The notes under the pieces were generated by a model. It searched no databases. It was not told the DNA's origin and was given only the letters and a program-made list of their open reading frames with translations. DNA of 28,326 bases from Kofleriaceae bacterium (GTDB lineage: Bacteria; Myxococcota_A; Polyangia; Haliangiales; Haliangiaceae). The stretch is from contig JBKJLC010000164.1 in the NCBI GenBank assembly GCA_046597055.1, positions 1 to 28,326 of the forward strand, given 5' to 3'. Shown here one piece after another: positions 1,714-20,227 of this stretch. The translations under genes were made by a program, and so were the position numbers. The stretch's first letter is position 1; every line of letters begins with the position of its first letter.

Positions 1714-2994
1714 ATGTCACGCACCTCCTCCTCCGCGATCGTCTCGACAATCATCGCCATGCTCCTTTCGGCTCACGCGCTCGTCGCCTGTGGGCCGCCG
1801 CCCGACACTGACGCTGCCGACGACAGTGGCGACGTCGACGCGGGCAACGCACCGGATGCGATGCCCGACGCACCGCTGCCGCAGCTGTCGCAGCTCTTGC
1901 CCGATCCGCAGACCGAGCGAGCCGGCTTCGGGCGCGCGATGGCGGTGAGCGGAGACACGCTCGTCGTCGGCGCGACCAACGGCCGCGAGCGCACGCCGGG
2001 CGCGGCGTACGTGTTCGTGCGGCGCGACGGCCAGTGGCAGCAGCAGGCCAAGCTCGCCGGCGATGCGGGTGGGGTCGCGTTCGCCGAGGAGATCGCGATC
2101 GGCGGCGACACGATCGCGGTGACCGAGCGGATGCCGGGCGCATCGATGGACGCGCCGACGCCGCGGCGCGTGCACGTCTTCACGCGCAGCGGCGCCGCGT
2201 GGTCGCTGGCCCAGACGCTCGCTCCGGCGATCGCGAGCTCCAACTACGGCCGCTCGGTCGCCGTCGAGGGCGACACGATCGTTGTCGGTGACGGCGGGCA
2301 CTACGTGATAAGCGAGCTGGTCAACATCGGGGCGCGCGTGTACGTGCGTGATGGCGCCACGTGGGTCGAGCGCGCCTCACTCCTGCCCACCGGCACGACG
2401 CCGAGCTGGAAATACGGCGCCGCGGTCGCGATCGACGGCGACCGGATCGCCGTGAGCGATCCGCGCGCGACCAACGCGGCGAACGAGACCACCGGCAACG
2501 TGTATCTGTTCGAGCGCGACGGTGCCGGAGCGTGGCAGCACGCGAGCACTGTCACACCGCAGTTCGGCAACGTATGGCCGCACGCGATCGGCTTCGGCGA
2601 CTCGGTCGCGCTCGAGGGCGACCGGCTGGTGGTCGGCGTGAGCGATGACAACTGCGTGTCGGCGCGCGTCTACGAGCTCGCCGCCTCGACCTGGAATCTC
2701 GTGGCGAAGCTCGACCCGCATCACAACGCGTGTGGCTTTCAGATGGCGCGCGTGGCGATGGACGGTGATCACGTCGCGGTGGGCGCGACCGGCGCGTTCG
2801 ACGACAACCCGGCCTTCCGGATCGAGGGCGCCGCGTACATCTTCGAGAAGAGCACGGCCGGCTGGAGCGAGCTGCCGGTGACCACGGTCCGCCCCGAGGG
2901 CGCGGTCTCGGCCGGCACGTCGATCGTGCTCACCGGTGAAACGCTGTTGGTCGGCGCGCCTGCTTCGGGCACGGTCTACCTCTGGCGCCGGTAG
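1714..2994 (+). CDS. FG-GAP repeat (integrin-alpha-like beta-propeller) lipoprotein
   Basis: Signal peptide with LVAC lipobox and Asp/Pro linker; repeated FG/YG-x-x-VA-x-x-GD-x-x-VVG ... G-x-x-Y-x-F-x-R units (FGRAMAVSGDTLVVGA, YGRSVAVEGDTIVVG, YGAAVAIDGDRIAV, FGDSVALEGDRLVVG). Confidence 0.85.
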   Translation: MSRTSSSAIVSTIIAMLLSAHALVACGPPPDTDAADDSGDVDAGNAPDAMPDAPLPQLSQLLPDPQTERAGFGRAMAVSGDTLVVGATNGRERTPGAAYVFVRRDGQWQQQAKLAGDAGGVAFAEEIAIGGDTIAVTERMPGASMDAPTPRRVHVFTRSGAAWSLAQTLAPAIASSNYGRSVAVEGDTIVVGDGGHYVISELVNIGARVYVRDGATWVERASLLPTGTTPSWKYGAAVAIDGDRIAVSDPRATNAANETTGNVYLFERDGAGAWQHASTVTPQFGNVWPHAIGFGDSVALEGDRLVVGVSDDNCVSARVYELAASTWNLVAKLDPHHNACGFQMARVAMDGDHVAVGATGAFDDNPAFRIEGAAYIFEKSTAGWSELPVTTVRPEGAVSAGTSIVLTGETLLVGAPASGTVYLWRR

Positions 2995-3190
2995 CTACCG
3001 ATGGCGCTCGGCGAGGGGTCGCGCCAGATCGGCGAGGCCACGCAGGGTGCGGTCGAGCTGGACCTGCGCGCGGTGGCTGCCGACGAGGACGACGCCGACC
3101 AGGCCGCTCACATCCTCGACCGGGCGAACCAAGACGAGCTGGCCCCAGAGCAGCTCGAGCACGCAGTCCGGGTCGGGACACGCAGGCCGT
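2995..3190 (-). pseudogene. Gene remnant (...CVLELLWGQLVLVRPVEDVSGLVGVVLVGSHRAQVQLDRTLRGLADLARPLAERHR*)
   Basis: Hand-translated minus-strand frame with GC3-biased codons ending at TAG 2997-2995; no strong start (an internal GTG would give about 55 aa). Confidence 0.35.
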
Positions 3191-3265
3191 GATCGCAGCG
3201 TGTGTCGCGCCAGGTGGCAAGGGCCGAGGCGCGCCCGCCATGAGGGCGACCGTCGGCGTCGACGG

Positions 3266-3422
3266 CTACGGCTCGACCGTCATGACCAGCATCTGGCCGT
3301 ACTCGACCAGCTCGCTGTCGGGGTGCGGCGCATGGATCTGTACGCCGAGCAGGAACTTGCCGGGCCCGAGGATCTTTCGGCCGATGCAGCGCGCGACCTC
3401 GGAGCTGGCGAACTCGACGCGC
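3266..3422 (-). pseudogene. 3' gene remnant (RVEFASSEVARCIGRKILGPGKFLLGVQIHAPHPDSELVEYGQMLVMTVEP*)
   Basis: Protein-like GC3-rich frame ending in TAG at 3268-3266; an in-frame TAG lies about 18 codons upstream with no start codon before the coding-like part. Confidence 0.4.
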
Positions 3423-3604
3423 TGGGCCCGATTGTCCGCCGCTTCCGGACGTCGGTTGGTGCGGCCTTGGTCCTATGCAACTGCGCGATCGTCCGGGATA
3501 GTGTCGCCGTTGGGGAATACGCACTCGATCCCGTCGGACCTGTCGACGTGCCCGCCTGGTGCATCGCACCGCGGCCGCGGGCGGGCGCATGCCTGGCGAG
3601 CGCG

Positions 3605-5176
3605 ATGACCGAAGACACCCACGGGTTCCACTTCGAGCGGCGCCACCTGGCGCTCGCCTGCGCCGACGTCGGCTGCTTCGAGCTCGATGCCGAGGCCGGC
3701 ACCATCAAGCTCGACCGGCGGGCCGCCGAGCTCGTCGGGATCGAGACGGGGGGCCAGGTCGGGCTCGACGACTACCTCGCGAGGCTCGAGCCGCTCGATC
3801 GCGACCGGGTCGCGCGTCGGGTAGCCACCGCGGTCGCCTCCAGTGGCGACGCTTACCAGGACGAGTTCCGGACCCAGGCGCGACGGTGGATCGCGGCCGA
3901 CGGGCGGGTCGCGCACGACAGCACCCAGCGACGCATGGTGCTGGTGGGGTTGCTCCGCGACGTCACGCTGCGGCGCACCACCGAAGACGAACGCGCGCGT
4001 CTGGTCGACGAGATGGCGAGGACCATGAGGTTCAACGACATGCTGGTCGGCATGGTCGCCCACGACCTGCGCGGTCCGCTGTCCGCCGTCCTCATCGCGG
4101 CGCAAGGCGTCGGCGCTCACGTCCAGGACGACGGCGTCCAGCGCAACGTGGCGCGGATCGAGCAGAGCACCGGCCGGATGTCACGCATCGTCGAGCAGCT
4201 GGTCGATCTGACCCACGCCCGGCTCGACGGCCAGATTCCGTTCCGCTTTCGCCAGAGCGACCTGGCGACGATCGCCCGGCAGGTCTCCGCCGAGACCATG
4301 GCGGCCCACGCGGGCGCGGTGATCGCCGTCGCCGCGAGCGCCGACACGCACTGCAACTGCGACCCCGAGCGTATCGCCCAGGTGGTCTCCAACCTGGTCG
4401 CGAATGCCGTCCTGCATGGCACCGACGTGCGGGCGGTGGGCGTGACCGTCGACGGCGGCGGCCCCGATGTCGTCAGGCTGACCGTGGCCAATCCCGGCCG
4501 GATCGCCCCCGAGACGCTCCCGACGCTGTTCAATCCCTTCCGCCGGGTCCGCCTCGACCAGCCCGCGGGCGGTCGCAGCCAGGGGCTCGGGCTCGGCCTG
4601 TACATCGCGCGTCGGATCGTCGTCGGACACGGCGGGCAGATCACGGTGATCACCGCCGAAGCGCAGGGCACGGTCTTCTGCGTCGAGCTCCCGCGGCAGG
4701 CCGCCTCGGCCACGTTCTCGTTGACGCCCGACGCCGGCGAGGAGGAGGCGATCTCGCTGCAGCGCCTCGGCGTCGCCGATCAGCCGAGCCGGGTCACGGC
4801 GTCCCTGTTCGGCGTGTTGCCGCTGCACGAGCGTGCCCCGGATGCGTTCGCGTCGCTGGTCGAGCGCCATGCCCGCCTGCTCGACGTCTCGCTCGACCGA
4901 CAGATCTATCGCGGCGCCGGCAAGAGCCTCGCGACCGACCTGCGGAGCCTCGCCGATCAGCTGGGCACGCTCGCGGCCGGCGCCGCCGACGTCGCCGAGC
5001 TCCACTCGCGCGCGCTGCAGGCCGCGCTCCGGGGCGCACCCGCCCAGAAGACCACCACGCTGGTGGCCGAGGGCCGCCTCATCGCGCTCGAGTTGATGGG
5101 CCGCCTCCTGACGTTCTACCGCAAGCGCGCCGGCCTGGGCGCGCTGCCCACCGGATCGCCTGGCCGCGGCGCGTAG
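3605..5176 (+). CDS. PAS-histidine kinase fused to a C-terminal KaiA/KaiA3-like domain (523 aa)
   Basis: PAS/PAC (...RWIAADGRV...LVGLLRDVT); H-box VAHDLRGPL, N-box SNLVANAVLHG, F-box LFNPF, G2 GLGLGL. C-terminal about 125 aa (VTASLFG...LADQLGTLAAGAADVAELH...EGRLIALELMGRLLTFYRK) matches the KaiA3 C-domain pattern from memory. Directly upstream of kaiB-kaiC. Confidence 0.85.
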   Translation: MTEDTHGFHFERRHLALACADVGCFELDAEAGTIKLDRRAAELVGIETGGQVGLDDYLARLEPLDRDRVARRVATAVASSGDAYQDEFRTQARRWIAADGRVAHDSTQRRMVLVGLLRDVTLRRTTEDERARLVDEMARTMRFNDMLVGMVAHDLRGPLSAVLIAAQGVGAHVQDDGVQRNVARIEQSTGRMSRIVEQLVDLTHARLDGQIPFRFRQSDLATIARQVSAETMAAHAGAVIAVAASADTHCNCDPERIAQVVSNLVANAVLHGTDVRAVGVTVDGGGPDVVRLTVANPGRIAPETLPTLFNPFRRVRLDQPAGGRSQGLGLGLYIARRIVVGHGGQITVITAEAQGTVFCVELPRQAASATFSLTPDAGEEEAISLQRLGVADQPSRVTASLFGVLPLHERAPDAFASLVERHARLLDVSLDRQIYRGAGKSLATDLRSLADQLGTLAAGAADVAELHSRALQAALRGAPAQKTTTLVAEGRLIALELMGRLLTFYRKRAGLGALPTGSPGRGA

Positions 5177-5201
5177 CAACCACACGGCTGGTGACCCCCC
5201 C

Positions 5202-5519
5202 ATGACGACCTTCCACCTCGAGCTCTACGTGATCGGCCAGTCCGTGAAATCGGAGATGGCGATCGCCAACGTCGAGCGGATCTGCCGGGATCGGCTGCCC
5301 GGTCGCTATCGCCTCGACATCATCGACGTCCTCGATCATCCGGAGGCCGCCGAGGAGGCCAACATCATCGCGACGCCCACCCTGATCCGCAAGAACCCGG
5401 TGCCGGTTCGCCGGGTCATCGGCGACCTGTCGCCGACCGAGGCCGTCCTCGCCGGGCTCGGGATCGACGCAGTACCCGTGGCAATCCCCGACAACGAAGG
5501 CAGCGACCGCAATGGCTAA
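5202..5519 (+). CDS. kaiB: Circadian clock protein KaiB (KaiB3-like)
   Basis: LELYVIG...S..AIAN..RIC...YRLDIIDVLDHPEAAEEANIIATPTLIRKNPVPVRRVIGDLS: canonical KaiB motifs; overlaps the kaiC start by 8 nt. Confidence 0.95.
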   Translation: MTTFHLELYVIGQSVKSEMAIANVERICRDRLPGRYRLDIIDVLDHPEAAEEANIIATPTLIRKNPVPVRRVIGDLSPTEAVLAGLGIDAVPVAIPDNEGSDRNG

Positions 5520-7026
5520 CACCCAGCACGAGATCGAGAAGCTGCCCACGGGCATCCCCGGGTTCGACCTGATCGCGGTGGGCGGGCTGCCGCGCGGGCG
5601 CTCCACGCTCGTCAGCGGCACCGCCGGCAGCGCCAAGACGGTCTTCGCCCTGCAGTTCCTGGTCGAGGGCGCCGCGCTGGGTGAGCCCGGCGTGTTCGTG
5701 ACGTTCGAGGAGACCCCGGACGACCTGCGGCGGAACATGCTCGGCTTCGGCTGGGATCTGGCCAAGCTCGAGGCCGAGGGCAAGTTTCGGTTCGTCGATG
5801 CGTCGCCGCGCCCCGAGGAGGAACGGATCGAGGCCGGCTCCTACGACTTCGGCGCGCTGGTCGCGCGCATCGAAGCGGCCCAGCGCAAGATCGCCGCCAA
5901 GCGGGTCGCGCTCGATTCGCTCGGGGCGGTGTTCACCCAGTTCGCCGATGCCGGCGCGGTGCGCCGCGAGCTCTTTCGACTGCACGCCGCGCTCAAGAAG
6001 CTCCAGCTCACCGCGCTGATCACGTCGGAGCGCAACGAGGAGTACGGCACGATCTCCCGGCATGGCATGGAGGAGTTCGTCGCCGACAACGTCGTGATCG
6101 TGCGCAACGTGCTCGAGCAGGAGAAGCGCCGGCGGACCATCGAGATCCTCAAGTTCCGCGGCACCCCGCACCAGAAGGGCGAGTATCCGTTCTCGGTCAC
6201 CGACCGCGGGATCATCGTGATCCCGCTGTCGGCGATCGACCTCCGGCAGAAGTCGACCACGGTCCGGGTCACGTCGGGCAACGGCGAGCTCGACGTGATG
6301 TGCGGCGGCGGCTTCTTCCGCGACTCGATCATCCTGGTGTCGGGCGCCACCGGCACCGGCAAGACCTTGACGGTCACGGCCTTCACCGCCGGCGGCATCG
6401 AGCAGGGCGAGCGGTGCCTGGCGTTCTGCTTCGAGGAGAGCCGCGAGCAGTTCTTCCGCAACGCGGCCGGGTGGGGCTTCGATTTCGAGAAGCTCGAGCG
6501 CGAGGGGCGCCTCAAGGTCGTCACCGACTACCCGGAGATCATGCCGCTCGAAGATCACCTGCTGCGCATGAAGCGGGTGATCGAAGAGTTCAAGCCCAAC
6601 CGGGTCGCGGTCGACAGCCTGTCGGCGCTCGAGCGCGTCTCGACCATGCGGAGCTTTCGCGAGTTCGTGATCGGCTTGACCGCCTTCGTCAAGCACCAGG
6701 AGATGGCCGGGTTGTTCACCTCGACCACCTCCGACCTGCTCGGTGGCACTTCGGTGACCGAGGCGCACATCTCGACGATCTGCGACTCGATCATCCTGCT
6801 CCGCTACGTCGAGATCCTCGGCGAGATGCGCCGCGGCATGACGGTTCTGAAGATGCGCGGCTCCCCCCACCAGAAGCAGATTCGCGAGTTCTTGATCGAT
6901 GGCGCCGGCATGCACATCGGCAAGGCGTTCCGGAATGTCACGGGGATCATCTCGGGGCACCCGGTGCAGCTGTCGGTGCCGCCCGAGGAGATCGAGCGGT
7001 TTCGCCATCTCTTCACGGAGGAGTAG
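5512..7026 (+). CDS. kaiC: Circadian clock protein KaiC (KaiC3-like, double RecA domain, 504 aa)
   Basis: CI P-loop GTAGSAKT, FEE, KFRG; CII P-loop GATGTGKT, FEE, KMRG; phosphosite motif TEAHISTICD (S421/T422 at 6772-6777); A-loop FRNVTGIISGHP and C-terminal tail. Confidence 0.97.
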   Translation: MANTQHEIEKLPTGIPGFDLIAVGGLPRGRSTLVSGTAGSAKTVFALQFLVEGAALGEPGVFVTFEETPDDLRRNMLGFGWDLAKLEAEGKFRFVDASPRPEEERIEAGSYDFGALVARIEAAQRKIAAKRVALDSLGAVFTQFADAGAVRRELFRLHAALKKLQLTALITSERNEEYGTISRHGMEEFVADNVVIVRNVLEQEKRRRTIEILKFRGTPHQKGEYPFSVTDRGIIVIPLSAIDLRQKSTTVRVTSGNGELDVMCGGGFFRDSIILVSGATGTGKTLTVTAFTAGGIEQGERCLAFCFEESREQFFRNAAGWGFDFEKLEREGRLKVVTDYPEIMPLEDHLLRMKRVIEEFKPNRVAVDSLSALERVSTMRSFREFVIGLTAFVKHQEMAGLFTSTTSDLLGGTSVTEAHISTICDSIILLRYVEILGEMRRGMTVLKMRGSPHQKQIREFLIDGAGMHIGKAFRNVTGIISGHPVQLSVPPEEIERFRHLFTEE

Positions 7027-7032
7027 GCGTCG

Positions 7033-7719
7033 ATGATGACCCCCGCGCGCATCCTGTACGTCGAGGACGACGACGACATCCGCGACACCATGACCATGCT
7101 CCTCGAGCACGAGGGCTACCACGTCACGCCGATGGCGACCGCCGAGAGCGCCCTCGAGGCGCTGACCCGCCACCGCTTCGACCTGCTCCTCACCGACTAC
7201 CAGCTCCCCAACGAGAACGCCGACTGGCTGATCGCGTCGGGCAAGGCGCGCGGCTGTCTGCTCGACACCGCCGTGATCGTCCTGAGTGGGACCGATCACC
7301 CGCGCGGGATCGACGCCTACCGACTGCTCCGCAAGCCGGTCGGCCAGGAGGCGCTGCTGGCGGCCTTCGACGAGGCGATGGGGAGCCGCGGGGTCGCGCC
7401 GCTGGCGACGCTCGGCGGGAACGCCGAGCTGCGGCTGGTCCTCTACGTCTCGGGCGAGTCCCAGGCGTCGCGCAAGGCCCAGCGCAACCTCCAGCTGGCC
7501 CTGCACGGCATCGCCGAGGACCGCATCGCGATCATGGTCCACGACGTCACCGGGACCGATCACGCCTGGGAGAACGCCGCCGAGGACGACCGGATCGTCG
7601 TCCTGCCGACGCTGGTGCGCCATGGGCCGCTGCCCAAGGTGTGGATCGCCGGGGACCTGTCCGATCATGCCCTGGTCCGCGACGCGATCTTGCCCGCGTC
7701 GATGCGGACGCGGGACTGA
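7033..7719 (+). CDS. Response-regulator receiver fused to a KaiB-like domain (228 aa)
   Basis: Intact REC (YVEDD, LLLTD, VLSG, RKP) followed by KaiB-like LVLYVSG..S.KA..NL...DDRIVVLPTLVRHGPLPKVWIAGDLSD; RBS GGAGGAG lies in the last kaiC codons. Confidence 0.9.
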   Translation: MMTPARILYVEDDDDIRDTMTMLLEHEGYHVTPMATAESALEALTRHRFDLLLTDYQLPNENADWLIASGKARGCLLDTAVIVLSGTDHPRGIDAYRLLRKPVGQEALLAAFDEAMGSRGVAPLATLGGNAELRLVLYVSGESQASRKAQRNLQLALHGIAEDRIAIMVHDVTGTDHAWENAAEDDRIVVLPTLVRHGPLPKVWIAGDLSDHALVRDAILPASMRTRD

Positions 7720-7721
7720 GC

Positions 7722-8840
7722 ATGGACCACATGGACGAGCCCGTGGCGGCCCCGGCGGTCCTGCTGGTCGAGAGCAACCCGGCCAACCTCCGCGCGCTGC
7801 GCGCCGTGGTCGACACGCTGGGCCGGCCGGTGATCGAGGCGACCTCGGGGCCGGCGGCGCTCGCGCTCCTCGACCAGCACGAGGTGACGCTGATCGTGAT
7901 GGCCGTGCAGACCCCCGGGCTCGACGGCTTCGCGACCGTCGCGATGATCCGCGCCGATAAGCGGCGGAGTCACATCCCGATCGTGTTCTTCGCCGCCGTT
8001 CACGATGACCCGGCGGCGGTGGCGCGCGGCTACACGCTGGGCGCGGTCGACTACGTCACCATGCCGTTCGACGCGGAGGTCGTGCGCGCCAAGCTTCGCG
8101 CGCTGGTCGGCTGGTACGAGCAGGGTGAACAGCGGCGCCTGGAAGCCGAGGCGCTCGCGTTCGAGCGAGCGGTGCACGCCGAGCGAGAACGGATCCTCGG
8201 GCTGGTCGCCCACGACCTGCGGAGCCCGCTGGCGGTGATCCAGACCGGCGTCGACTACCTGCACGCGCGCGGTGGGCTACGGGTCGACCAGGAGAAGATC
8301 GTCGGCCGCATCCAGCGCAACGCCGCGCGGATGGGGCGCCTGGTCAGCGACCTGCTCGACTTCACCCGGCTGCAGAACGGCCCGCTGATCATCCGGCCCC
8401 GGCCCGCGAGCCTGGCGACCATCGTCTCGGAGGCGGTCGAGGATCTCCAGTTGCTGACCTCGCGCGCGATCGGGCTGTCGGTCCACACGCCGGGCGGCAC
8501 CAGCTGCGACGAGGATCGGGTCACCCAGGCGATCTCGAACCTGGTGCTCAACTCCGTGCAGCACACCCCGGCCGACGCCCGCGTGCAGGTGGAGCTCCGC
8601 GCCGATGGGGACGCGTTCGAGGTCAGCATCTGGAACGATGGCGAGCTCAGCTCGGAGGACGCGGCGACCCTGTTTCAGCCGTTCCGCAAGGGCACCAGCA
8701 GCGTCGGCATGGGCCTCGGCCTCTACATCTCGCAGCAGATCGCGCGCGCCCACGGCGGCGATCTGTCGATGCGCTCCTCGGCGGCGAGCGGCACGACGTT
8801 CACGCTGCGGCTGCCGGCCGCGGCGCCCGCCACGGATTGA
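7722..8840 (+). CDS. Pseudo-receiver-histidine kinase (372 aa)
   Basis: REC fold with degenerate catalytic residues (VESN, IVMAVQTP, FFAA, YVTMP); HisKA VAHDLRSPL; HATPase SNLVLNSVQH, LFQPF, GMGLGL; ATG 2 nt after the upstream stop. Confidence 0.9.
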   Translation: MDHMDEPVAAPAVLLVESNPANLRALRAVVDTLGRPVIEATSGPAALALLDQHEVTLIVMAVQTPGLDGFATVAMIRADKRRSHIPIVFFAAVHDDPAAVARGYTLGAVDYVTMPFDAEVVRAKLRALVGWYEQGEQRRLEAEALAFERAVHAERERILGLVAHDLRSPLAVIQTGVDYLHARGGLRVDQEKIVGRIQRNAARMGRLVSDLLDFTRLQNGPLIIRPRPASLATIVSEAVEDLQLLTSRAIGLSVHTPGGTSCDEDRVTQAISNLVLNSVQHTPADARVQVELRADGDAFEVSIWNDGELSSEDAATLFQPFRKGTSSVGMGLGLYISQQIARAHGGDLSMRSSAASGTTFTLRLPAAAPATD

Positions 8841-8946
8841 TCCGGACGGCATGCTCGCGCGAGGGCGCCGCCGGCGCGCTCGCCGAGGCTGAGCCGCGGT
8901 CGCCGCCACGACCCCGGTTGCCAGCCACCGCCGGACCCGATCGCGG

Positions 8947-8952
8947 TACCCT
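8947..8952 (+). promoter_or_regulatory. -10 element (TACCCT) of a putative leaderless transcript
   Basis: TAnnnT 7 nt upstream of GTG 8960. Confidence 0.4.
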
Positions 8953-8959
8953 CGGCGAC

Positions 8960-9685
8960 GTGCCCCCGACGACGACCTGGTCGAGCCGCCTGCTGATCCT
9001 GTCCGGCCTGCTCGGTGCCGGGTGCGGCGGCGCGGCCGACGACACCGACGCGCGGTCGACCGCGCTCGCGCCGACCCAGCCCGACACCTACTACATCGGT
9101 CAGGCCCACCGCTACTTCGACGCCCTGGACGAGAGCGCGCCGCTCGCCAGCGTGCCGACCTACGCGCTGCGGGTCGCGCGCTGGGAATGGCCGCCGTGGC
9201 TCTACCTGACCGGGTTCGGCGCGGAGCAGATGGTCGCGATCGACGCCTCGGTGAAGTCGCTGACGCCGGCGACGATCCCGACCCGCGACTGCCGCGCGTT
9301 CGCGGTGCAGCCGTTCGCGCGCTGCCGGGTGACGTTCGTGTATGCGGACGGGCCCTGTCCCATCTACGAGGAGTTCACCTTCAACGATCAGGGCGAGATG
9401 ACGTTCGTCGAGGCGTGGTCGGACCTGCCCGGGCTGCTGCCGATGAGCGATGTCGCCGACACGTGGGCCGAGGGCGAGGGCGTGCATCGGCTGTCGACCC
9501 GGGTGCCGGGGCTTGGCAACGCGACCGGCCTGATCGACCTGACCTCCGAGGCGATGCGGCGCGCGGCCGACGGCGACCCGGAGATCGCGGACTTCCGGAT
9601 GCGCGCCGAGTACTTCTGGTCGTCGTGGACCGAGGCGTACCAGGCCGCCGGGCCGGATCTGTTCGCGCGTGGCTGCGGCTGGTAG
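8960..9685 (+). CDS. Hypothetical lipoprotein (241 aa), Trp/Cys-rich
   Basis: GTG start gives signal peptide ...RLLILSGLLGAGC; globular body with ARWEWPPWLYLTG, CRAF..PFARCRV..GPCPIYEEFTFN and terminal RGCGW; strong GC3 bias. Confidence 0.8.
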   Translation: MPPTTTWSSRLLILSGLLGAGCGGAADDTDARSTALAPTQPDTYYIGQAHRYFDALDESAPLASVPTYALRVARWEWPPWLYLTGFGAEQMVAIDASVKSLTPATIPTRDCRAFAVQPFARCRVTFVYADGPCPIYEEFTFNDQGEMTFVEAWSDLPGLLPMSDVADTWAEGEGVHRLSTRVPGLGNATGLIDLTSEAMRRAADGDPEIADFRMRAEYFWSSWTEAYQAAGPDLFARGCGW

Positions 9686-12707: not shown

Positions 12708-12800
12708 AGGCGCGACGGGTTGCGCACGAGCGTGTGCAGTGGCCCCTCGCGACCCTATGGCCGCCGTACCCGAACGGAGTGCGTCCGAGGGCTTGGCGCC

Positions 12801-12816
12801 TGGAACGAGGCTTGCT
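12801..12816 (+). promoter_or_regulatory. Putative sigma54 (-24/-12) promoter
   Basis: TGGAACGAGGCTTGCT versus TGGCACG-N4-TTGCW (one mismatch); ends 12 nt before ATG 12829. Confidence 0.7.
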
Positions 12817-12828
12817 CGGGCACCCTCC

Positions 12829-14145
12829 ATGCCCAACATCTCCGGAATCACTCTCGCCGCGTGTCTGGCGGCGGTCGGCTCCACGGCTTGTGACGTGGGA
12901 GAGGTCGACAACGGCAAGGCCGGCGATGGACTCGACGAAGGCGACCGGGAAGCCACTGGCGCCATCGCGTCGCAGGTCTGCGGTCGCGGCGCGACGACGC
13001 TCGGCATCGACGTGTCGTTCTATCAGGGCGCCTTCAACTGGACGACGGTCAAGGACGCCGGCGTCGAGTTCGCGTTCATCCGGGTGTCCGACGGGCTCGG
13101 CTACCGCGACAGTCAGTTCGCCCGCAGCTGGACCGAGGCCAAGCGGGCCGGCGTCATCCGTGGCGCGTACCAGTTCTTCCGGCCCGGCGAGAGCGCCATC
13201 GCCCAGGCCGACCTGCTGGTCGACGCGATGGGCACGCTCGCGCCAGGCGATCTGCCGCCGGTGATCGACGTCGAGGCCACCAGCGGCCTCGGGGCGGCCA
13301 CGGTCGCCGCCCGGGTCCAGACCTGGGTCGACCGGGTCCGCACCCGCACCGGCCGCACGCCCATCGTCTACACCGGCAAGTACTTCTGGCAGGACAGCGT
13401 CGGCAACTCGGCGGCCTTCAAGACCCTGCCCCTGTGGCTCGCGCAGTACACGTCGGCGGCATGCCCCAACCTGCCCGATGCCTGGTCGAGCTGGAAGTTC
13501 TGGCAGTACTCCGATCGCGGCTCGATCCGCGGCATCAGCGGTGGCGTCGACGTCAACCGCTTCAACGGCACGCTCCAGGACCTGCAGACGTTCATCGCCG
13601 CAAGCGGCGGCGGCCCGAACCCGTCGGTGGCGATCGAGGTCTACTGGGCGCGGGAGGCCGATGGCACCTACCAGCTCCGGGCGCTGGCACCCGCCGCGAT
13701 CGCCCGCGTCGACTACCTGGTGGACAACAACATCATCGGCGGCGCCAGCCGCGGCGCGGGCGGCAACTTTCCGGACAGCTACCGGTTCACCTCGGCTGGC
13801 ACGGGCCGGGCCTTCGAGATCCGCGGATTCGACGCCGCCAACCAGCAGATCGGCCTTGGCGTCGGCTCCATCGACGTGACCGACGGCACCGCCGTGTACA
13901 TCAAGCAGCTGGGCGCGGCGCTCTACGAGATCGGCCTCGAGCGCCCGCCGACGGGCCTCCAGGCCATCGAGGTCCGCGCCGATGGCATCCTCCTCACCGA
14001 CAGCGTCAGCGGGGTGACCCGGGTCAGCCGCAACGCCGTCCGCTCCCGTTTCAACACGCTGGGCTCGCGCCGGTTCGAGATCACCACCTACAACGCCAAC
14101 GGCACGGTGCGCGGCCGCCTCGACCGCACGTTCACGCTGCGCTGA
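12829..14145 (+). CDS. GH25 lysozyme (muramidase), probable lipoprotein, with two C-terminal beta-sandwich-like repeats
   Basis: GIDVSFYQG, GAYQFF, catalytic DVE, IVYT, LWLAQY, WQYS, VDVN; N-terminal signal peptide with Cys (LAAC/STAC). Confidence 0.92.
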   Translation: MPNISGITLAACLAAVGSTACDVGEVDNGKAGDGLDEGDREATGAIASQVCGRGATTLGIDVSFYQGAFNWTTVKDAGVEFAFIRVSDGLGYRDSQFARSWTEAKRAGVIRGAYQFFRPGESAIAQADLLVDAMGTLAPGDLPPVIDVEATSGLGAATVAARVQTWVDRVRTRTGRTPIVYTGKYFWQDSVGNSAAFKTLPLWLAQYTSAACPNLPDAWSSWKFWQYSDRGSIRGISGGVDVNRFNGTLQDLQTFIAASGGGPNPSVAIEVYWAREADGTYQLRALAPAAIARVDYLVDNNIIGGASRGAGGNFPDSYRFTSAGTGRAFEIRGFDAANQQIGLGVGSIDVTDGTAVYIKQLGAALYEIGLERPPTGLQAIEVRADGILLTDSVSGVTRVSRNAVRSRFNTLGSRRFEITTYNANGTVRGRLDRTFTLR

Positions 14146-14348: not shown

Positions 14349-17204
14349 ATGGGCGAGCTGGGATGGGGCCTTCGCGGGCAGACGGGCGGCGGTGATCGCA
14401 ACGAGGAACGAGAGCTGTGGATCCGCGAGGAGCTCGCGCGCCGGCTCGCGTTTCAGCCCGTGCGCGAGATCGCCGCGATCTACGCCGAGTTGTACGACCA
14501 GTGGGAGCAGCGCGCGACGACGCCGCCACCGATCGCGCTGCGGCGGCGACCAGGACCGGCCGGCAAGCGGACGCGGACGCTGCCCCTGGCCGCCGCGACG
14601 CCGGCCCCACCGGGCCCGATGGTGCGGCGCGAGATCGACGGCGCCGGGCAGGTGACGCCGGACGTTGCGGAGGTGCTTGATCGCGCCCTGCGGGGTGCGG
14701 CCGAGCGGCTCGACCCGCAAATCCGCGCGCGGCTGGAGCAGTTGCTCGGGCGCGAGCTCGGCGACGTCCGGATCCACCGCGACGGGCCTGCCGACGACGC
14801 GGCACGCGCGCTCGGTGCGCGGGCGTTCGCGGTCGGGCGCGACGTCTTCTTTCGCGACGGCAACTACGACCCGGGCACGGCGGAGGGGGCGCGCCTGATC
14901 GCGCACGAGGTGGTCCACACCCAGCAGCCCGAGCGCACCGAGCCCGGTGGGCTGCAGCTCAGCAGCCCTGGCGATGCGTCGGAGCGCGAGGCCGACGCCC
15001 TCGCTGACACCTTCGTCGGCGTGCTGAGCGAGGCCGACCGCGCCCGCACCGACCAGCGCGCGTCCGAGGCCTTCGGCCCCGCGCGCCCGGCGCCGGCCGC
15101 GCTATCATCGTCGCGCCGCGCCGCGGTGTCGCGGGTCGACGAGCCGGGGCGCCGCCCGGCGCCGATCGCGATCCCGCCCGGGGGAGTGGCGGTCGATCAG
15201 GTCGGGGTGGTGGCCTGGGACGGGGCGCCTGAGCTGCGACTGCGCGCGACGCCGTCGACGACCGACGACAACACGATCGGCAATCTGCCGCTGAACACCC
15301 ACGTCCAGGTGATCAAGCGGTTTGCAGGCGACTGGCTGTTCGTCTCGACCCGCGACGGCCGCATGGGCTACGTCGCGGCCGCCTACGTGTGGACCGCGCC
15401 GCAGCACCCGCTGCCAGAGCCCAACGCGCGGCTCCACCGGGTTGAAGCCGGGGTGGAGGGCACCGCGATCGCGATCGCGGAGCGCTACTTCCGCGCGGTC
15501 GCCGACGACTGGGGGCAGGACCTCCGCTTCTACGTCAACGTGATTGCCGCGGTGAACGGCGTCAGCATTCCGTCGGGGGTCGACGGCTGGCGATCGGTCC
15601 ACTTCCAGGCCGGGCGGTTCATCTGGATCCCGAGCCTGATCTTCGCGCGCGGGATGCGCGGCCAGGTCAGCTCGGGCTCCTACACGTACGAGGCCGCCGA
15701 CGCGCTGGGCGTCGCCAGCGTGATCGAGCGCGCGGCCGAGCTGCTGTCCGATTTCCGGACGGCCATCGGGCTGTCCCTGCAGTACATCCCGGCCGCGGTC
15801 GCGCGCCATGCCGAGGAGGCGATCATCGCGGTCCTCCAGTCGCTCGCGCTGATGGCGGTGGGCGCGATCGCCCTCCTGGCGATCAGCACGGCGATCGGCG
15901 CGGCGATCGGCGCGCTGGCCGGCGGCGTCGGCGCGGCCCCGGGCGCGGCGGTCGGATTCGAGGTCGGGATGGCGCTGCTCGAGTGGATCGGGCTGGCGAT
16001 GCTGGTCGCGTGGCTAGGCACGTCGATCGCACGGATCGGGACGGCGTTCGGTGCCTTCATCGGCACCGTGTGGAACGCGCGCGGCGATCGCGCGCAGCTC
16101 GAGCTCGCCGCCCACCAGTTCGCCGAGGCGATCGGTACGCTGATCGGGGTGCTGATCGAGGCGCTGGTGATGTGGGCCGCGGCCCAGGGTGCTACCGCGG
16201 CGGTCGGCGCGCTGCGCGGCACCGCGTTCGGACGGGCGTTTGGCGAGTCGCGGCTCGGCACCTGGTTGACCGAGCGCATCGCACGGTACCAACGCGGCGA
16301 GACGACCTTGCCGGGCCCGCGCGAAGCCCTGCTGCGCGCACGTGCGCGCCAGCTGGCGCCACGCCTCGGGCTCACCGAGGCCGAGACGCTCGGGCTTCTG
16401 CGCGCGCTCGACGCCCCGACCCTGACCGGGCTCAAGGACGAGGTCGGCGTCGAGGGGCTGCGCTCCCTGGTCGGCCGGTCCGAGGGTGTGCTGGCGGCGA
16501 TGGCGCGCGCGCTCGCGATCACCGGCGCCGATCCGGCGGCGCGCGCGGCGCTGATCGAGGGCGCCCGGCTCAACGGCCGCGGCACGCTGTCGAACAGCGT
16601 GTTCGAGCAGGCACTCGACGCGTACACCGCGTTCCGCGCGCGCTACGGCAACCGGGCTTCGGGAGACTTCGCCAGCCGCTTCTGGCGTCGCCTGGGACAA
16701 GACACCCGCCAGGCCGAAGCCGAGATCCGCCTGGCCGAGGATCTCCTCGCGGGGCGGACGCCGCTGGGCGAGGCCAGCCGCGTCGACGGGTTACCCGAGA
16801 GCACGGTGGCTGGCGAGCGCGTGCCGGAGTACCGGGTGACCACACCGGAGGGCGCACGCCTGGTCGAGAGCAAGGCCATCGGCGAGCCGGGACGCCCCCT
16901 GACCGAGACCTCGGTCGGCAACAACGCCCGCAGCGCCAACCAGCAACTCCGCGACCAGGCCGGGCGCACCGGCGAGACCGAGGGCGGTCTGATCCGCCTC
17001 GACGGACGCGACGCCGGCAACACCGCGGCGACGCCGGCCCAGATCGGTGAGTGGGTCAGCGCGCGCATCCCGAGCCCGCGCCCGAGCCGGGTCACCGGGT
17101 GGGTCGAGGTCTTCTACCGCGACGCTGGCGGACGCACGATGCGCGTCGTGCTCCGGCTTGACGGCACCCGCTTCGTGGTCCACACCTCGGAGGTGATGCT
17201 GTGA
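14349..17204 (+). CDS. DUF4157 (eCIS core domain) polymorphic toxin: DUF4157-SH3b-LysM-like-hydrophobic region-putative nuclease C-terminus
   Basis: LGDVRIH..ARAFAVGRDVFF..YDPGT..G.RLIAHEVVHTQQ (HExxH 14904-14918) plus EREAD; SH3b LRLRATPST...GDWLFV..GYV; long Gly/Ala hydrophobic helices; C-terminal E...PEYRV...VESK. Confidence 0.85.
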   Translation: MGELGWGLRGQTGGGDRNEERELWIREELARRLAFQPVREIAAIYAELYDQWEQRATTPPPIALRRRPGPAGKRTRTLPLAAATPAPPGPMVRREIDGAGQVTPDVAEVLDRALRGAAERLDPQIRARLEQLLGRELGDVRIHRDGPADDAARALGARAFAVGRDVFFRDGNYDPGTAEGARLIAHEVVHTQQPERTEPGGLQLSSPGDASEREADALADTFVGVLSEADRARTDQRASEAFGPARPAPAALSSSRRAAVSRVDEPGRRPAPIAIPPGGVAVDQVGVVAWDGAPELRLRATPSTTDDNTIGNLPLNTHVQVIKRFAGDWLFVSTRDGRMGYVAAAYVWTAPQHPLPEPNARLHRVEAGVEGTAIAIAERYFRAVADDWGQDLRFYVNVIAAVNGVSIPSGVDGWRSVHFQAGRFIWIPSLIFARGMRGQVSSGSYTYEAADALGVASVIERAAELLSDFRTAIGLSLQYIPAAVARHAEEAIIAVLQSLALMAVGAIALLAISTAIGAAIGALAGGVGAAPGAAVGFEVGMALLEWIGLAMLVAWLGTSIARIGTAFGAFIGTVWNARGDRAQLELAAHQFAEAIGTLIGVLIEALVMWAAAQGATAAVGALRGTAFGRAFGESRLGTWLTERIARYQRGETTLPGPREALLRARARQLAPRLGLTEAETLGLLRALDAPTLTGLKDEVGVEGLRSLVGRSEGVLAAMARALAITGADPAARAALIEGARLNGRGTLSNSVFEQALDAYTAFRARYGNRASGDFASRFWRRLGQDTRQAEAEIRLAEDLLAGRTPLGEASRVDGLPESTVAGERVPEYRVTTPEGARLVESKAIGEPGRPLTETSVGNNARSANQQLRDQAGRTGETEGGLIRLDGRDAGNTAATPAQIGEWVSARIPSPRPSRVTGWVEVFYRDAGGRTMRVVLRLDGTRFVVHTSEVML

Positions 17205-17845
17205 GGCCGGACCGCGACCAGCCGTGCATCGAGGCGGTGATGGACACCTGGCGCAACTGGAGCGGCGCTGGCACCTGGACCTGGGCGCCGCGCACCCGAC
17301 CTACCGGCGACGCCGCGGCCGATCTCGACCGCTGGGGCGCGGCCCAGGTCGCGGCGCTGCTCGAGGCCCTGCGTCCGTTTGCGCGCGTGCGCGAGGCCCT
17401 GCTGGACGGGCCGCCGGAGGCTCCCCTGGTCGCGAGCGGCGAGTTCCGCTGGTCCGGCGAGGCGCCGCACGCGGAGTTCGAACGGGCAGTGATCGACGCG
17501 GTGCGCACCGCGTCGGGCCCGGTCACCACCATCGACCTGGCGTTCGATCTGCACGTCTGGGTGCGGACCGCGGCGTCGCCAACCATGCCGGTGCGCGGCT
17601 GGGTCCGCGGCCTCGGCACGGCGTCGCTGGTGGTCCGGCGTGCCGACCCGTACGGCGCGCTGAGCGTGCACCATACGCTGTTCGTCGACGGGATCCTGAA
17701 CGGCGATTCCAACGCCGAGCTGCACCGCCTCGATCAGCCGCTGCTGCGCGACGCCCTCGACAGCCTCGAGGCGCGGCTGGGACCGATCGTCGAGGTCGCG
17801 GGTGTCCCGGGGGTCGGGCGGACCGGCTTCGCGTCGGTCGCCTGA
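17201..17845 (+). CDS. Hypothetical protein, candidate immunity protein
   Basis: GTG start overlaps the toxin stop (GTGA, 17201-17204); 214 aa, no signal peptide, GC3-biased; alternative ATG at 17240. Confidence 0.7.
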   Translation: MRPDRDQPCIEAVMDTWRNWSGAGTWTWAPRTRPTGDAAADLDRWGAAQVAALLEALRPFARVREALLDGPPEAPLVASGEFRWSGEAPHAEFERAVIDAVRTASGPVTTIDLAFDLHVWVRTAASPTMPVRGWVRGLGTASLVVRRADPYGALSVHHTLFVDGILNGDSNAELHRLDQPLLRDALDSLEARLGPIVEVAGVPGVGRTGFASVA

Positions 17846-18055
17846 CGCGTCCCGGCGCTGCCAGCTCGATCGCGGCGGTCGACGCCGCCGGCCACGGGCG
17901 TGAGCGGGCAGACCCGTCTGGCGGTGCGACGTGCGCTGTTCGCAGGTAGTGCGAGCGACTGTTACCGCGCGAAGGTTCGCAGAACCGGGCCCAGCGCACG
18001 ACGATGGCCCCAGGTCGAGCGGCTGGGGAGCGCGCGCGGCCCGGAAGGTCCATTC

Positions 18056-20227
18056 ATGCTGTCCAGACCGCTGCTCTTGTCGCTCACCACCGCCGGGCTT
18101 TGGGCATCGAGCTCGGGGTGCACGCCGGGTGCCGTCGACGATGCGTCAGCCCCGCGCGCCGCCCCGATCGGCATCGTCACCCCGTGGGGACCCTTCACGC
18201 GCGTCGATCGGGTCGCGGTCGCCCCCGATGGCGTGCCCGATTTCATCCGCGGCAGGCTCGGCGAGGTCGCGCCGGCCCGCCTCGCCGCCGCACGCACGGC
18301 GGAGGAGGCCGCCGAGGTGCTCCAGGCTGCGCTGCCGCAGCTGGTCGCGGCCTTCGGCGTCTCGCCCGACGGGCTCGTCGCCACCAGCGTCCGGCGCGAC
18401 CGGCTCGGCATGACCCACGTGCGCTACGCCCAGTCCGCCAGCGGCCTGCGCGTGGTCGGCGGTGAGTTGGTCGTGCACGTCGCGGCCGACGGCCTGATCC
18501 GCGCGGTGACCGGCACGGCCCGCGACGTGGCTGCGGTGAGCGTGATCCCGGTCGTCGGCCAGGCCGAGGCCGCCACCATCGCGCGCCTCGCGACCGCGCA
18601 CGGCGACGTCGACGTGCACAGCACCGAGCTGACCTACGTCCTGACGACGCGCGACGGCCGTCCCCACCTGGCCTGGGAGGTCGGCGTGATCGGCCGCGAT
18701 GGGCTGCTGGTCATCGACGACGTCTACGTCGACGCGCATGACGGCCGCGTCGTCGACCGTCGCCCGCACGTCTTCACCGCGCGCAACCGCGAGATCTTCG
18801 ACGCCCAGGGCCGGTCTCCGCCGTTCTTCGGCAGCCCCGGCCCTCGCCTCGGCACCGAGGTCAGCCCGCCGACCGAGACCGTCGGGCTCGCCGCGTTCAG
18901 CAACACCGGGATCACCTACGACTGCTACCAGGACCTGTTCGGCCGCGACTCGTACGACGACGTCGGCGCCAAGCTGACCTCGGTCGTGCACGTGCGCTTC
19001 CGCACCCCGAACGGCATGAGCACCGGCAACAACGCCGCGTGGATCGGCGGGTTCGGCGGCGGCGGCGGCCAGATGGTCTACGGCGACGGCGACGGCACGC
19101 TGATGGGCCCCACCAGCGAAGGCTTCGACGTCACCGCCCACGAGCTCACCCACGCCGTGACGTCGTCGACGGCGCAGCTGGCCTACCAGAACGAGTCGGG
19201 CGCGCTCAACGAGGCGATGAGCGACATCATGGCCGCCGTGTGCGAGGCCTGGCGCGATCAGGCCGTCAGCCCCAACACCTGGCTGATCGGCGAGCAGATC
19301 TTCACCCCGGCGACCAGCGGCGACGCGCTGCGCTACATGGCCAACCCGACCGCCGACCGCGCGCTCTACCCGCCTGCGCTCGGCGGGTCGCGTGACTTCT
19401 ACGCGGATCGTTACGCCGGCACCGAGGACAACGGCGGCGTCCACCTCAACTCGGGCATCGCCAACCTGGCGTTCTACCTCCTGACGCAAGGCGGCACCCA
19501 TCCGCGCCAGCGCACCACGTTCGCGGTCCCCGGCATCGGCATCACCAAGGCCGGGGCGATCTTCCAGCGCGCCCTCACCGAGGGCTACCTCCTGCAGAAC
19601 TCGACGTTCGCGCAGGCCCGCACCGCCACCGAGGAAGCGGCCATGGATCTCTACACCGCCGCCGAGGTCGCCGCGGTCGGCACGGCGTGGGCAGCCGTCG
19701 GCATCGGCGAGCGGCCGGCGGTCGACACCACGCCGCCGCAGGTCGCCATCACCGCGCCGGCCGACGGCGCCATCGTCGCGCCCGGCGTCGCGGTCGACGT
19801 GACCGCTGGCGACGATCAGGGCGTGCTGCGCGTCGAGCTGGCCGTCGACGGCGTGACGGTCGCGATGGACACCACCGCGCCGTACGCGTTCACCACGGCC
19901 GCCGACCTGGCCGCCGGGCCGCACACGATCACCGCCACCGCGTTCGACACTGCCAACCAGGCCACCGCGACGATCGACGTCACCGTCGACAGCGGCGACG
20001 GCTCGAGCTGCACGCCGACCTGCCCGACCGGCGCGGTCTGCACCGACGGTGTCTGTGTGCCACCCGGCGCGAGCGCCGACGGTGACGAGGCCGGCGGCTG
20101 CGGCTGCACGACCGCAGCCGATCCCCGCGGCACGCTGGTCCTCGTCGCGCTGATCGCTGGCGCCTGGCGCCGGCAGCGGCGCATCGGCGGCGCGACGGCC
20201 CGAACCAGGCCGCGCCGATCACGGTAG
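18056..20227 (+). CDS. M4 (thermolysin/bacillolysin) metalloprotease with FTP/PepSY propeptide, Ig-like domain and MYXO-CTERM tail
   Basis: DRLGMTHVRYAQ (FTP), YVDAHDG (PepSY), NNAAW, HELTH, GALNEAMSD, GGVHLNSG; DTTPPQVAITAP Ig-like domain; GGCGC..LVLVALIAGAWRRQRR tail; RBS-like GGAAGG. Confidence 0.93.
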   Translation: MLSRPLLLSLTTAGLWASSSGCTPGAVDDASAPRAAPIGIVTPWGPFTRVDRVAVAPDGVPDFIRGRLGEVAPARLAAARTAEEAAEVLQAALPQLVAAFGVSPDGLVATSVRRDRLGMTHVRYAQSASGLRVVGGELVVHVAADGLIRAVTGTARDVAAVSVIPVVGQAEAATIARLATAHGDVDVHSTELTYVLTTRDGRPHLAWEVGVIGRDGLLVIDDVYVDAHDGRVVDRRPHVFTARNREIFDAQGRSPPFFGSPGPRLGTEVSPPTETVGLAAFSNTGITYDCYQDLFGRDSYDDVGAKLTSVVHVRFRTPNGMSTGNNAAWIGGFGGGGGQMVYGDGDGTLMGPTSEGFDVTAHELTHAVTSSTAQLAYQNESGALNEAMSDIMAAVCEAWRDQAVSPNTWLIGEQIFTPATSGDALRYMANPTADRALYPPALGGSRDFYADRYAGTEDNGGVHLNSGIANLAFYLLTQGGTHPRQRTTFAVPGIGITKAGAIFQRALTEGYLLQNSTFAQARTATEEAAMDLYTAAEVAAVGTAWAAVGIGERPAVDTTPPQVAITAPADGAIVAPGVAVDVTAGDDQGVLRVELAVDGVTVAMDTTAPYAFTTAADLAAGPHTITATAFDTANQATATIDVTVDSGDGSSCTPTCPTGAVCTDGVCVPPGASADGDEAGGCGCTTAADPRGTLVLVALIAGAWRRQRRIGGATARTRPRRSR

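Follow-up and report, generated by a model that had tools for sequence, protein, structure and literature searches.

The DNA analyzed here, referred to as the window, is a 28,326-nucleotide stretch of the genome of a Kofleriaceae bacterium (GenBank assembly GCA_046597055.1, contig JBKJLC010000164.1, positions 1 to 28,326; GTDB phylum Myxococcota_A), and it contains a cluster of four kai-type genes on the plus strand. The first gene (3605 to 5176, with an ATG at 3605 and a stop at 5176) encodes a 523-residue protein in which a PAS domain and a histidine kinase core are joined to a C-terminal helical domain that, by homology, is of the KaiA3 type. It is followed after 25 nucleotides by kaiB (5202 to 5519; 105 residues; Pfam KaiB, E = 5e-24, under the NCBIfam equivalog cut-offs), which overlaps by 8 nucleotides with kaiC (5512 to 7026; 504 residues). 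A gene for a 228-residue fusion of a receiver to a second KaiB domain, hereafter receiver-KaiB, begins 6 nucleotides after kaiC (7033 to 7719; Pfam Response_reg at residues 7-111 and KaiB at residues 137-215). No sigma-70 promoter or terminator pattern was found within positions 2900-9200 of the window. The source genome (8.4 Mb, 94% complete, 7.6% contaminated) has one copy of the KaiA3-type domain.

Within the kinase-KaiA3 protein, the PAS domain spans residues ~12-120 (3638 to 3964). The PAS_3 match at residues 34-115 is below the Pfam cut-off (E = 0.0036), and the assignment draws as well on PAS-type secondary structure and a predicted local confidence (pLDDT) of 81-94 over residues 21-120. 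HisKA, the dimerization and histidine phosphotransfer (DHp) domain, follows at residues 147-203 (4043 to 4213), HATPase_c at residues 253-365 (4361 to 4699), and the KaiA3-type domain at residues ~379-508 (4739 to 5128; ~130 residues). Pfam has no match in the final 158 residues and NCBIfam none in the final 145, and NF006800 covers only the kinase core (85 bits against a cut-off of 342). Likewise, Pfam matched no receiver or pseudo-receiver domain in the protein. The model of the full-length monomer had a predicted TM-score (pTM) of 0.46, at which the domain arrangement is not readable, with 16 low-confidence residues at the C-terminal end.

A public gene caller gives a 614-residue protein by adding 91 codons upstream of the ATG at 3605. 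Longer starts are unlikely because the G+C content of third codon positions is 0.74 in these codons compared with 0.92-0.96 across the cluster genes, and starts at 2936 and 3332 were rejected for this reason; the closest relatives of the protein are 512-532 residues long. An assembly chimera was also rejected, since single read-run contigs bridge the fusion junction and the fusion recurs in relatives. One such contig comes from run X2 (3000-5857) and one from run X1 (3518-4965), with one differing letter each; both runs belong to the same study and are possibly the source of the window DNA. The same junction is seen in 44 further kinase-fused sequences.

Evidence for a KaiA3-type domain

The significant link between the C-terminal domain and the Kai proteins goes through KaiA3. 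Over 113 residues, the domain is 42% identical (pairwise E = 3e-28) to a sequence, P0256, that equals the shown part of WP_015955003.1, an entry in the KaiA3 orthologue list in the accessible part of Data S1 of PMC11372060; this PCC 7424 orthologue stood in for Synechocystis KaiA3 in the comparison. When the C-terminal 145 residues were searched with phmmer against 1.84 billion representatives, 1340 matches were returned at E ≤ 0.001 (693 at 1e-10), which are representatives clustered at 50% identity. The relationship to canonical KaiA is not significant by sequence. Pfam KaiA (PF07688) gave no match at E ≤ 0.1 to either the protein or the domain alone, two relatives match it at E = 0.0014 and 0.0072 (both below the cut-off), and no KaiA was found among the PDB sequences by single-sequence search or with a 24-row profile. 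A 50-row profile reached four KaiA sequences at E = 0.15-0.45 amid unrelated helical proteins, with a non-KaiA protein as the top match.

Structural comparison points in the same direction. In a search of 48,161 chains with an AlphaFold model of the domain (150-row alignment, pLDDT 87.5), ranks 1-3 were the KaiA C-domains of 1r5q (Z 10.9, root-mean-square deviation [rmsd] 2.5 Å, 90 aligned residues), 5c5e (Z 10.3, rmsd 3.0 Å, 98 residues) and 5jwr (Z 10.0, rmsd 2.5 Å, 96 residues), but these scores are not decisive, as Z below ~13 in helical bundles may mirror a common arrangement. Also counting against a reading as KaiA are rank 4, a stressosome domain with a Z of 9.7 that is level with ranks 2-3, and the Foldseek search, which had no match at E ≤ 0.001 and in which KaiA ranked second at E 0.38. 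The top three ESM Atlas clusters (scores 0.96, 0.93 and 0.93) have Pfam KaiA in 26%, 74% and 80% of their members, at a recognition value of 2216 that is under the 2300 mark and weak by itself; RsbU_N appears in the Atlas at 0.84. Pfam RsbU_N (PF08673) did not match the domain itself and matched 4 of 50 family members weakly (best E 0.0034), and its absence among the 50 structural-match rows listed excludes nothing. The structural and language-model matches thus agree but are weak alone, and it is KaiA3 that carries the assignment. Since the N terminus consists of PAS, HisKA and HATPase domains and has no NarL-type receiver, the protein has a KaiA3-type domain but, strictly speaking, does not count as KaiA3.

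No other part of the protein is as well conserved as this domain. Its mean identity among 13 close relatives is 0.74 compared with 0.53-0.62 elsewhere in the protein, and among more distant relatives (20-25 sequences) it is 0.52 compared with 0.28-0.44 for the other parts. A vestigial tail was rejected as a description of the domain, which outranks the rest of the protein in conservation.

The initial annotation of this DNA, made from the sequence alone, had noted about 160 residues beyond the HATPase, quoted two peptides from them, and aligned their last helix with KaiA and more closely with KaiA3. There are 158 such residues, both peptides are present, HMMER gives the same helix register with KaiA, though at E 0.15-0.45, and KaiA3 is indeed the closer relative. 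The domain that it placed at 4790 to 5176 is real, while the conserved span (4739-5128) starts slightly upstream. Foldseek, one of the checks that it proposed, returned nothing at E ≤ 0.001. A complex with the KaiC tail, which it also proposed as part of a hypothesis in which PAS input could gate KaiC phosphorylation or KaiC binding could set kinase output, received weak support. Two copies of the domain with KaiC residues 472-504 scored 0.49 compared with 0.00 for the best control, the runs agreed in at least 60% of contacts, and the pLDDT of the partner was 51. Of 157 solved pairs, 116 reached the mark for a complex, as did 2 of 215 mismatched pairs; among the pairs reaching it, scores of 0.60 or less were confined to 18 solved pairs and both mismatches. 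Because the predicted complex is like one already solved (5c5e), the prediction may reflect likeness only.

Conservation of the kinase and its neighbors

The kinase core has the motifs of the HisKA family, namely a histidine with an adjacent acidic residue (His153-Asp154) and the N, G1 and G2 boxes, together with an F box. The catalytic motifs agree with the claim of the initial annotation that a PAS kinase takes the place of the receiver, and its expectation that such proteins would be annotated merely as histidine kinases holds for the public records of named kinase-fused relatives, which read 'signal transduction histidine kinase'. Across the family, the four motifs (His-Asp, N, G1 and G2) occur together in 30 of 39 full cores. 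The G1 box is an Asn variant that is found in 34 of the 39 cores, in 11 of 73 other kinases of the genome and in one solved bacteriophytochrome kinase. A Gly occupies the His+4 position, where 24 of the 39 cores keep Thr or Asn. According to the part of PMC3510030 that was available, HisKA phosphatase activity needs Thr or Asn at this position, and poor phosphatase activity is therefore predicted for this protein.

Receiver-KaiB, which the initial annotation did not mention, accompanies the fusion and is predicted to be phosphorylated by the kinase. Its receiver has the acidic pocket, Asp55 and Lys101, and in an alignment of 13 such receivers Asp55 is kept in 12 and Lys101 in all. No other receiver is conserved in the cluster, and this one is without a DNA-binding or enzymatic output. 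Receiver-KaiB is most likely the phosphate acceptor of the kinase, a prediction that follows from their co-occurrence and from the conserved residues on both proteins.

KaiC is a double-domain protein with the features of clock-type KaiC. It scores above the cut-offs of NF006799 (703 bits; cut-off 408) and TIGR02655 (631 bits; cut-off 546) and retains both Walker A motifs, the CII glutamates, the Ser421-Thr422 pair, the B-loop, the A-loop and a conserved C-terminal tail. Compared with a 519-residue clock KaiC it scores 582 bits, and compared with 8db3, which we take to be of the Rhodobacter KaiC2 type, 319 bits. Ser421 is invariant in the 38 KaiCs aligned, and the tail terminates in an invariant Phe. 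Thr422 is replaced by Ser in 8 of the 13 KaiCs of the kinase-fused clade (L002-L004, L007, L008, L010, L011 and L051). All 13 have a Cys after the Ser-Thr pair. Elsewhere in the genome there are three more KaiC-like genes (contigs C117, C196 and C292; 25-34% identity), one of which has a KaiB behind it.

Distribution of the cluster

The kinase and the domain share one reading frame in 16 of 59 genome loci examined. In each of the 16, kaiB is next and kaiC follows, and receiver-KaiB comes after kaiC in all 15 that have DNA beyond kaiC. It is frameshifted in L006, present as an inverted copy followed by a second copy in L013, and present in two copies in L014. The other 43 loci comprise 34 non-fused KaiA3 loci in which 1 kb or more follows kaiC, none of which has receiver-KaiB; 8 that were left out, having no kaiC or no room beyond it; and L051, which is truncated at its 5' end and was treated separately. 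L051 carries receiver-KaiB, and its KaiC groups with the fused clade. A reverse search for receiver-KaiB in metagenomes found at least 383 loci, of which 80 were kept. Among the matches listed, all 13 full-length receiver-KaiB genes directly follow kaiC, and the kinase-KaiA3 fusion is there in the 3 of these loci whose DNA extends far enough upstream; two more have a truncated KaiA3 domain, and the fusion also occurs in one locus whose receiver is cut. Genes outside the four-gene core vary between loci, and no dedicated output gene is conserved in the core.

In a FastTree phylogeny of 373 distinct domain sequences, a single clade of 55 (support 0.91) contains all 45 that are kinase-fused. A quick IQ-TREE analysis of the 55 clade members and 45 of the 318 others, scored only by the Shimodaira-Hasegawa-like approximate likelihood-ratio test (SH-aLRT), gave this clade a value of 97. 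The remaining 10 members comprise 6 PAS-KaiA3 proteins and 4 that are short or fragmentary. Where named, the kinase-fused members belong to Myxococcota and, in two records, to Vicinamibacterales. A tree of 38 KaiCs likewise unites those of 12 fused loci and L051 (SH-aLRT 100); under a midpoint root this clade is drawn within other KaiA3-linked KaiCs, in a tree without cyanobacterial KaiC3 or KaiC1. Because the domain sequences and the KaiCs each form one clade, the kinase fusion most likely arose once, and it appears to have moved as a cluster, including into the two Vicinamibacterales records.

The kinase is one of several inputs, since the domain also occurs with REC, PAS, GAF, MEDS, Hpt and phytochrome modules. 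Among the best 150 of the 1340 matches, 17 carry HisKA and/or HATPase, all of them in the top 27, and the rest have receiver, PAS, GAF, MEDS or Hpt domains or are fragments. A search for longer proteins gave 83 matches, including 14 kinase-fused proteins (this one among them) and two phytochrome fusions. The latter, P0233 and P0236, have a phytochrome photosensory module (PAS_2-GAF-PHY in P0233) on the KaiA3-type domain and no Pfam kinase domain, an architecture through which light might feed directly into a KaiC system. The distribution of the KaiA3-type domain goes far beyond the published list, and the domain lies nearly always ahead of kaiB-kaiC (loci L016-L059). Record titles with the domain include Anaerolineae, Desulfobacteraceae, Spirochaetales, Magnetococcales, Nitrospinota, Competibacteraceae, Gemmatimonadaceae and Fimbriimonadaceae. 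An extra helical N-terminal domain ahead of PAS is seen in L081, L083, L091 and P0025, in frames of 650-690 residues. A fusion of a KaiB-like domain to a histidine kinase, in SasA-like order, follows kaiC in L059 (Tritonibacter horizontis; 5329-6660), and in L064 (5905-7227, minus strand) KaiB and kinase matches lie in one frame, a candidate single open reading frame, behind a receiver-KaiA3 gene.

Flanking genes

Directly downstream of the core and outside it is a gene on the plus strand for a pseudo-receiver-histidine kinase (7722 to 8840), in which the receiver has Ala for the acceptor Asp and Met for Lys; the maps of relatives differ at this position, and most related loci do not keep the gene. 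Farther away, the window encodes an FG-GAP repeat protein (1681-2994), a GH25 lysozyme-type protein (12739-14145), an M4 peptidase with an Ig domain and a hydrophobic C-terminal anchor (17900-20227), a 2014-residue hybrid with Ser/Thr kinase, AAA ATPase, GAF, PAS, histidine kinase and receiver domains (20890-26934), and an ArgJ-family gene (27060-28211). A 951-residue protein with eCIS-core, SH3 and DUF6861 domains (14349-17204) is overlapped by a 214-residue gene without a Pfam match (17201-17845), and the two look like a bacterial toxin-immunity pair.

Discussion

The cluster described here is real and recurrent, and is an apparently undescribed rewiring of the KaiA3-B3-C3 system. The available portion of PMC11372060 (Koebler et al. 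2024) reports for Synechocystis sp. PCC 6803 that KaiA3 (Sll0485) is a binding partner of KaiC3 and promotes KaiC3 phosphorylation, and that the cognate kinase of KaiA3 and the input and output paths are unknown. KaiA3-B3-C3 clusters are published there for five non-cyanobacterial genera, and KaiA3 outside the cyanobacteria is therefore not new. The system in the window shares with those clusters the C-terminal domain family, the A-B-C gene order, the Ser-Thr sites of KaiC and the occurrence outside cyanobacteria. KaiA3, however, has an N-terminal receiver, and the orthologues in the accessible part of Data S1 are all 275-318 residues long, whereas here a 523-residue PAS kinase carries the domain, the receiver is on a second KaiB, and a Pro-Arg-Asp turn in the domain is altered. 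Two Roseiflexus entries in those data are labelled 'histidine kinase', yet they are 283 and 291 residues long and receiver-type in the part shown. Relative to KaiA3, the receiver would have shifted from the A to the B protein while a kinase joined the A protein.

Other known Kai systems are more distant. Canonical KaiA of Synechococcus (PF07688; 1r5q, 5c5e and 5jwr) shares the register of the last helices and has a four-helix C-domain that the model resembles in fold (Z 10.0-10.9, not decisive), but there is only 10-14% identity and no Pfam match, and it has a pseudo-receiver where this protein has a PAS kinase; the KaiA N termini listed in the accessible text of PMC8113500 (Dvornyk and Mei) are OmpR-like, REC, AtoC or PHA02030 only. 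SasA and CikA, as described in the portion of PMC6378743 at hand, are also histidine kinases with a Kai-binding module. Their modules are a KaiB-like domain at the N terminus of SasA and a pseudo-receiver at the C terminus of CikA, whereas the kinase-KaiA3 protein has a KaiA-type bundle and is predicted to pass phosphate to a KaiB fusion and not to a transcription factor; by Pfam, it has neither the KaiB-like N-terminal domain of SasA nor the GAF domain and C-terminal pseudo-receiver of CikA. A 2024 survey (PMC11832031) describes, in its accessible sections, myxobacterial KaiC homologues without kaiA, with few kaiB and without a B-loop. Those KaiCs likewise come from Myxococcota, but the KaiC described here scores above the NCBIfam cut-offs, retains the B-loop and is encoded beside KaiA3-type and KaiB partners. 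Neither a kinase-fused KaiA-like domain nor receiver-KaiB was found in the literature searched, which included accessible parts of PMC13468521, 10.1101/700500 and 10.1101/2023.09.04.556229 and covered subscription journals thinly, so that a prior mention is possible.

How might such a system work? The preferred reading, to which we assign a probability of about 0.5, is that the KaiA3-type domain stimulates KaiC while the PAS-controlled kinase phosphorylates receiver-KaiB. The DHp dimer and the KaiA-type dimer would form one dimeric protein, and the paired domains would, with good probability by analogy with KaiA3 acting on KaiC3, engage the A-loop and tail of KaiC and promote phosphorylation of Ser421 and Thr422. 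It is somewhat less certain, though still favored, that a cytoplasmic signal sensed by the PAS domain sets the autophosphorylation of His153 and the transfer of phosphate to Asp55 of receiver-KaiB. Phosphorylation may then alter the binding of this second KaiB to the CI ring of KaiC, beside the plain KaiB. A single input would then reach the accelerator and brake arms of the KaiC cycle alike.

Several observations weigh against this reading. The fused loci form one clade, and the 15 of 15 association with receiver-KaiB therefore amounts to one retained evolutionary event and not to 15 tests; in addition, some of the metagenome loci resemble the same genomes as the genome loci or close ones. 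The distribution is patchy, with the domain found in 1 of 16 same-genus genomes searched, where it lies in this same cluster, and in 3 of 36 same-family genomes searched, of which two are receiver-type KaiA3; across the phylum, 7 of 401 genomes matched, in a search that scored only 11 candidates per genome and does not have the sensitivity to give a frequency. The receiver could also be served by more than 70 other kinases of the genome. Furthermore, His is lost in 4 of the 39 cores and the N-box Asn in 3 more, losses that are seen in none of the 73 other kinases of the genome, although single metagenome contigs may carry errors. Judging from these motifs, catalysis by the kinase has decayed or disappeared in some family members, and 6 proteins of the clade are of a PAS-KaiA3 type that lacks a kinase. 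The initial annotation raised neither this decay nor the variety of input domains.

The motif losses, 7 of 39 cores against 0 of 73 controls, and the 6 PAS-only members are what would be expected if the kinase core were mainly a dimeric conformational relay from PAS to a KaiA3-type domain that activates KaiC, with phosphotransfer incidental and receiver-KaiB served by other kinases or by none. Fusions of PAS and other direct sensors to the domain are common in the wider family, and the kinase core evolves faster than the KaiA3-type domain. Retention of all four motifs in 30 of 39 cores, and the finding that among the loci examined receiver-KaiB with Asp55 occurs only beside the fusion, speak against such a relay, which is rather unlikely. 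A little less probable again is that the kinase is a clock output like SasA or CikA, in which the domain docks on KaiC or KaiBC, the state of KaiC sets kinase activity, and the phosphate exits the Kai system. SasA and CikA provide precedents for kinases with Kai-binding modules, and CikA activity shifts on KaiBC (in the available text of PMC6378743); KaiA3 is part of a large KaiA3-B3-C3 complex (in that of PMC11372060); and the four-gene core has no conserved dedicated output gene. The one receiver conserved in the cluster, however, is part of a KaiB fusion without DNA-binding or enzymatic output, and this kinase, unlike one in a CikA-type phosphatase role, lacks Thr/Asn at His+4, although 24 of 39 relatives keep it.

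It is also conceivable, but quite improbable, that the domain no longer activates KaiC and is a generic dimerization or partner-binding module of the KaiA/RsbU_N type, in which case the cluster would be a stress-signaling ATPase system without timing. One of the sequence changes that invite such a view, an altered turn, also counts against the preferred reading. Pro-Arg-Asp follows Gly/Ser at this turn in 270 of the 318 domains that lie outside the clade but is absent from all 55 inside it, 15 of which have Pro-Arg-Glu. This copy has Ala-Ala-Asp and thus lacks Arg83, which is kept in at least 90% of alignment A2. In addition, the domain has an Arg at the position of the KaiA His, the RsbU_N matches (4 of 50 members, best E 0.0034; 0.84 in the Atlas) fit a generic module, and Thr422 is Ser in 8 of 13 clade KaiCs. 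On the other side are the 42% identity to KaiA3, the standing of the domain as the most conserved part of the protein, the presence of kaiB and kaiC behind it in 16 of 16 fused loci, and the conserved A-loop and tail of KaiC.

In the preferred reading, a signal-set switch or a damped timer is more likely than a self-sustained 24-h clock. A fuller proposal is somewhat doubtful, namely a four-gene Kai oscillator of soil Myxococcota and Acidobacteriota with a PAS kinase as its KaiA arm and the second KaiB as the response regulator of that kinase, where phosphotransfer between the two would time or entrain the KaiC phosphorylation cycle without SasA, CikA or RpaA. Since the system consists of four adjacent genes whose sequence gives no sign of a membrane segment, KaiC activation, phosphotransfer and oscillation should be testable in one tube.

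The accessible part of a 2026 review describes KaiA as essentially exclusive to cyanobacteria. The reputation of KaiA as rare is explained by the fact that Pfam and NCBIfam miss the domain, which has 1340 representatives at 50% identity with many different inputs. For non-cyanobacterial Kai systems, the cluster bears on the input route, as it names a kinase and a receiver within four adjacent genes. In these bacteria, from a group reported to lack KaiA, the kinase probably couples an outside signal to the predicted accelerator of a KaiC timer and to its predicted brake as well.

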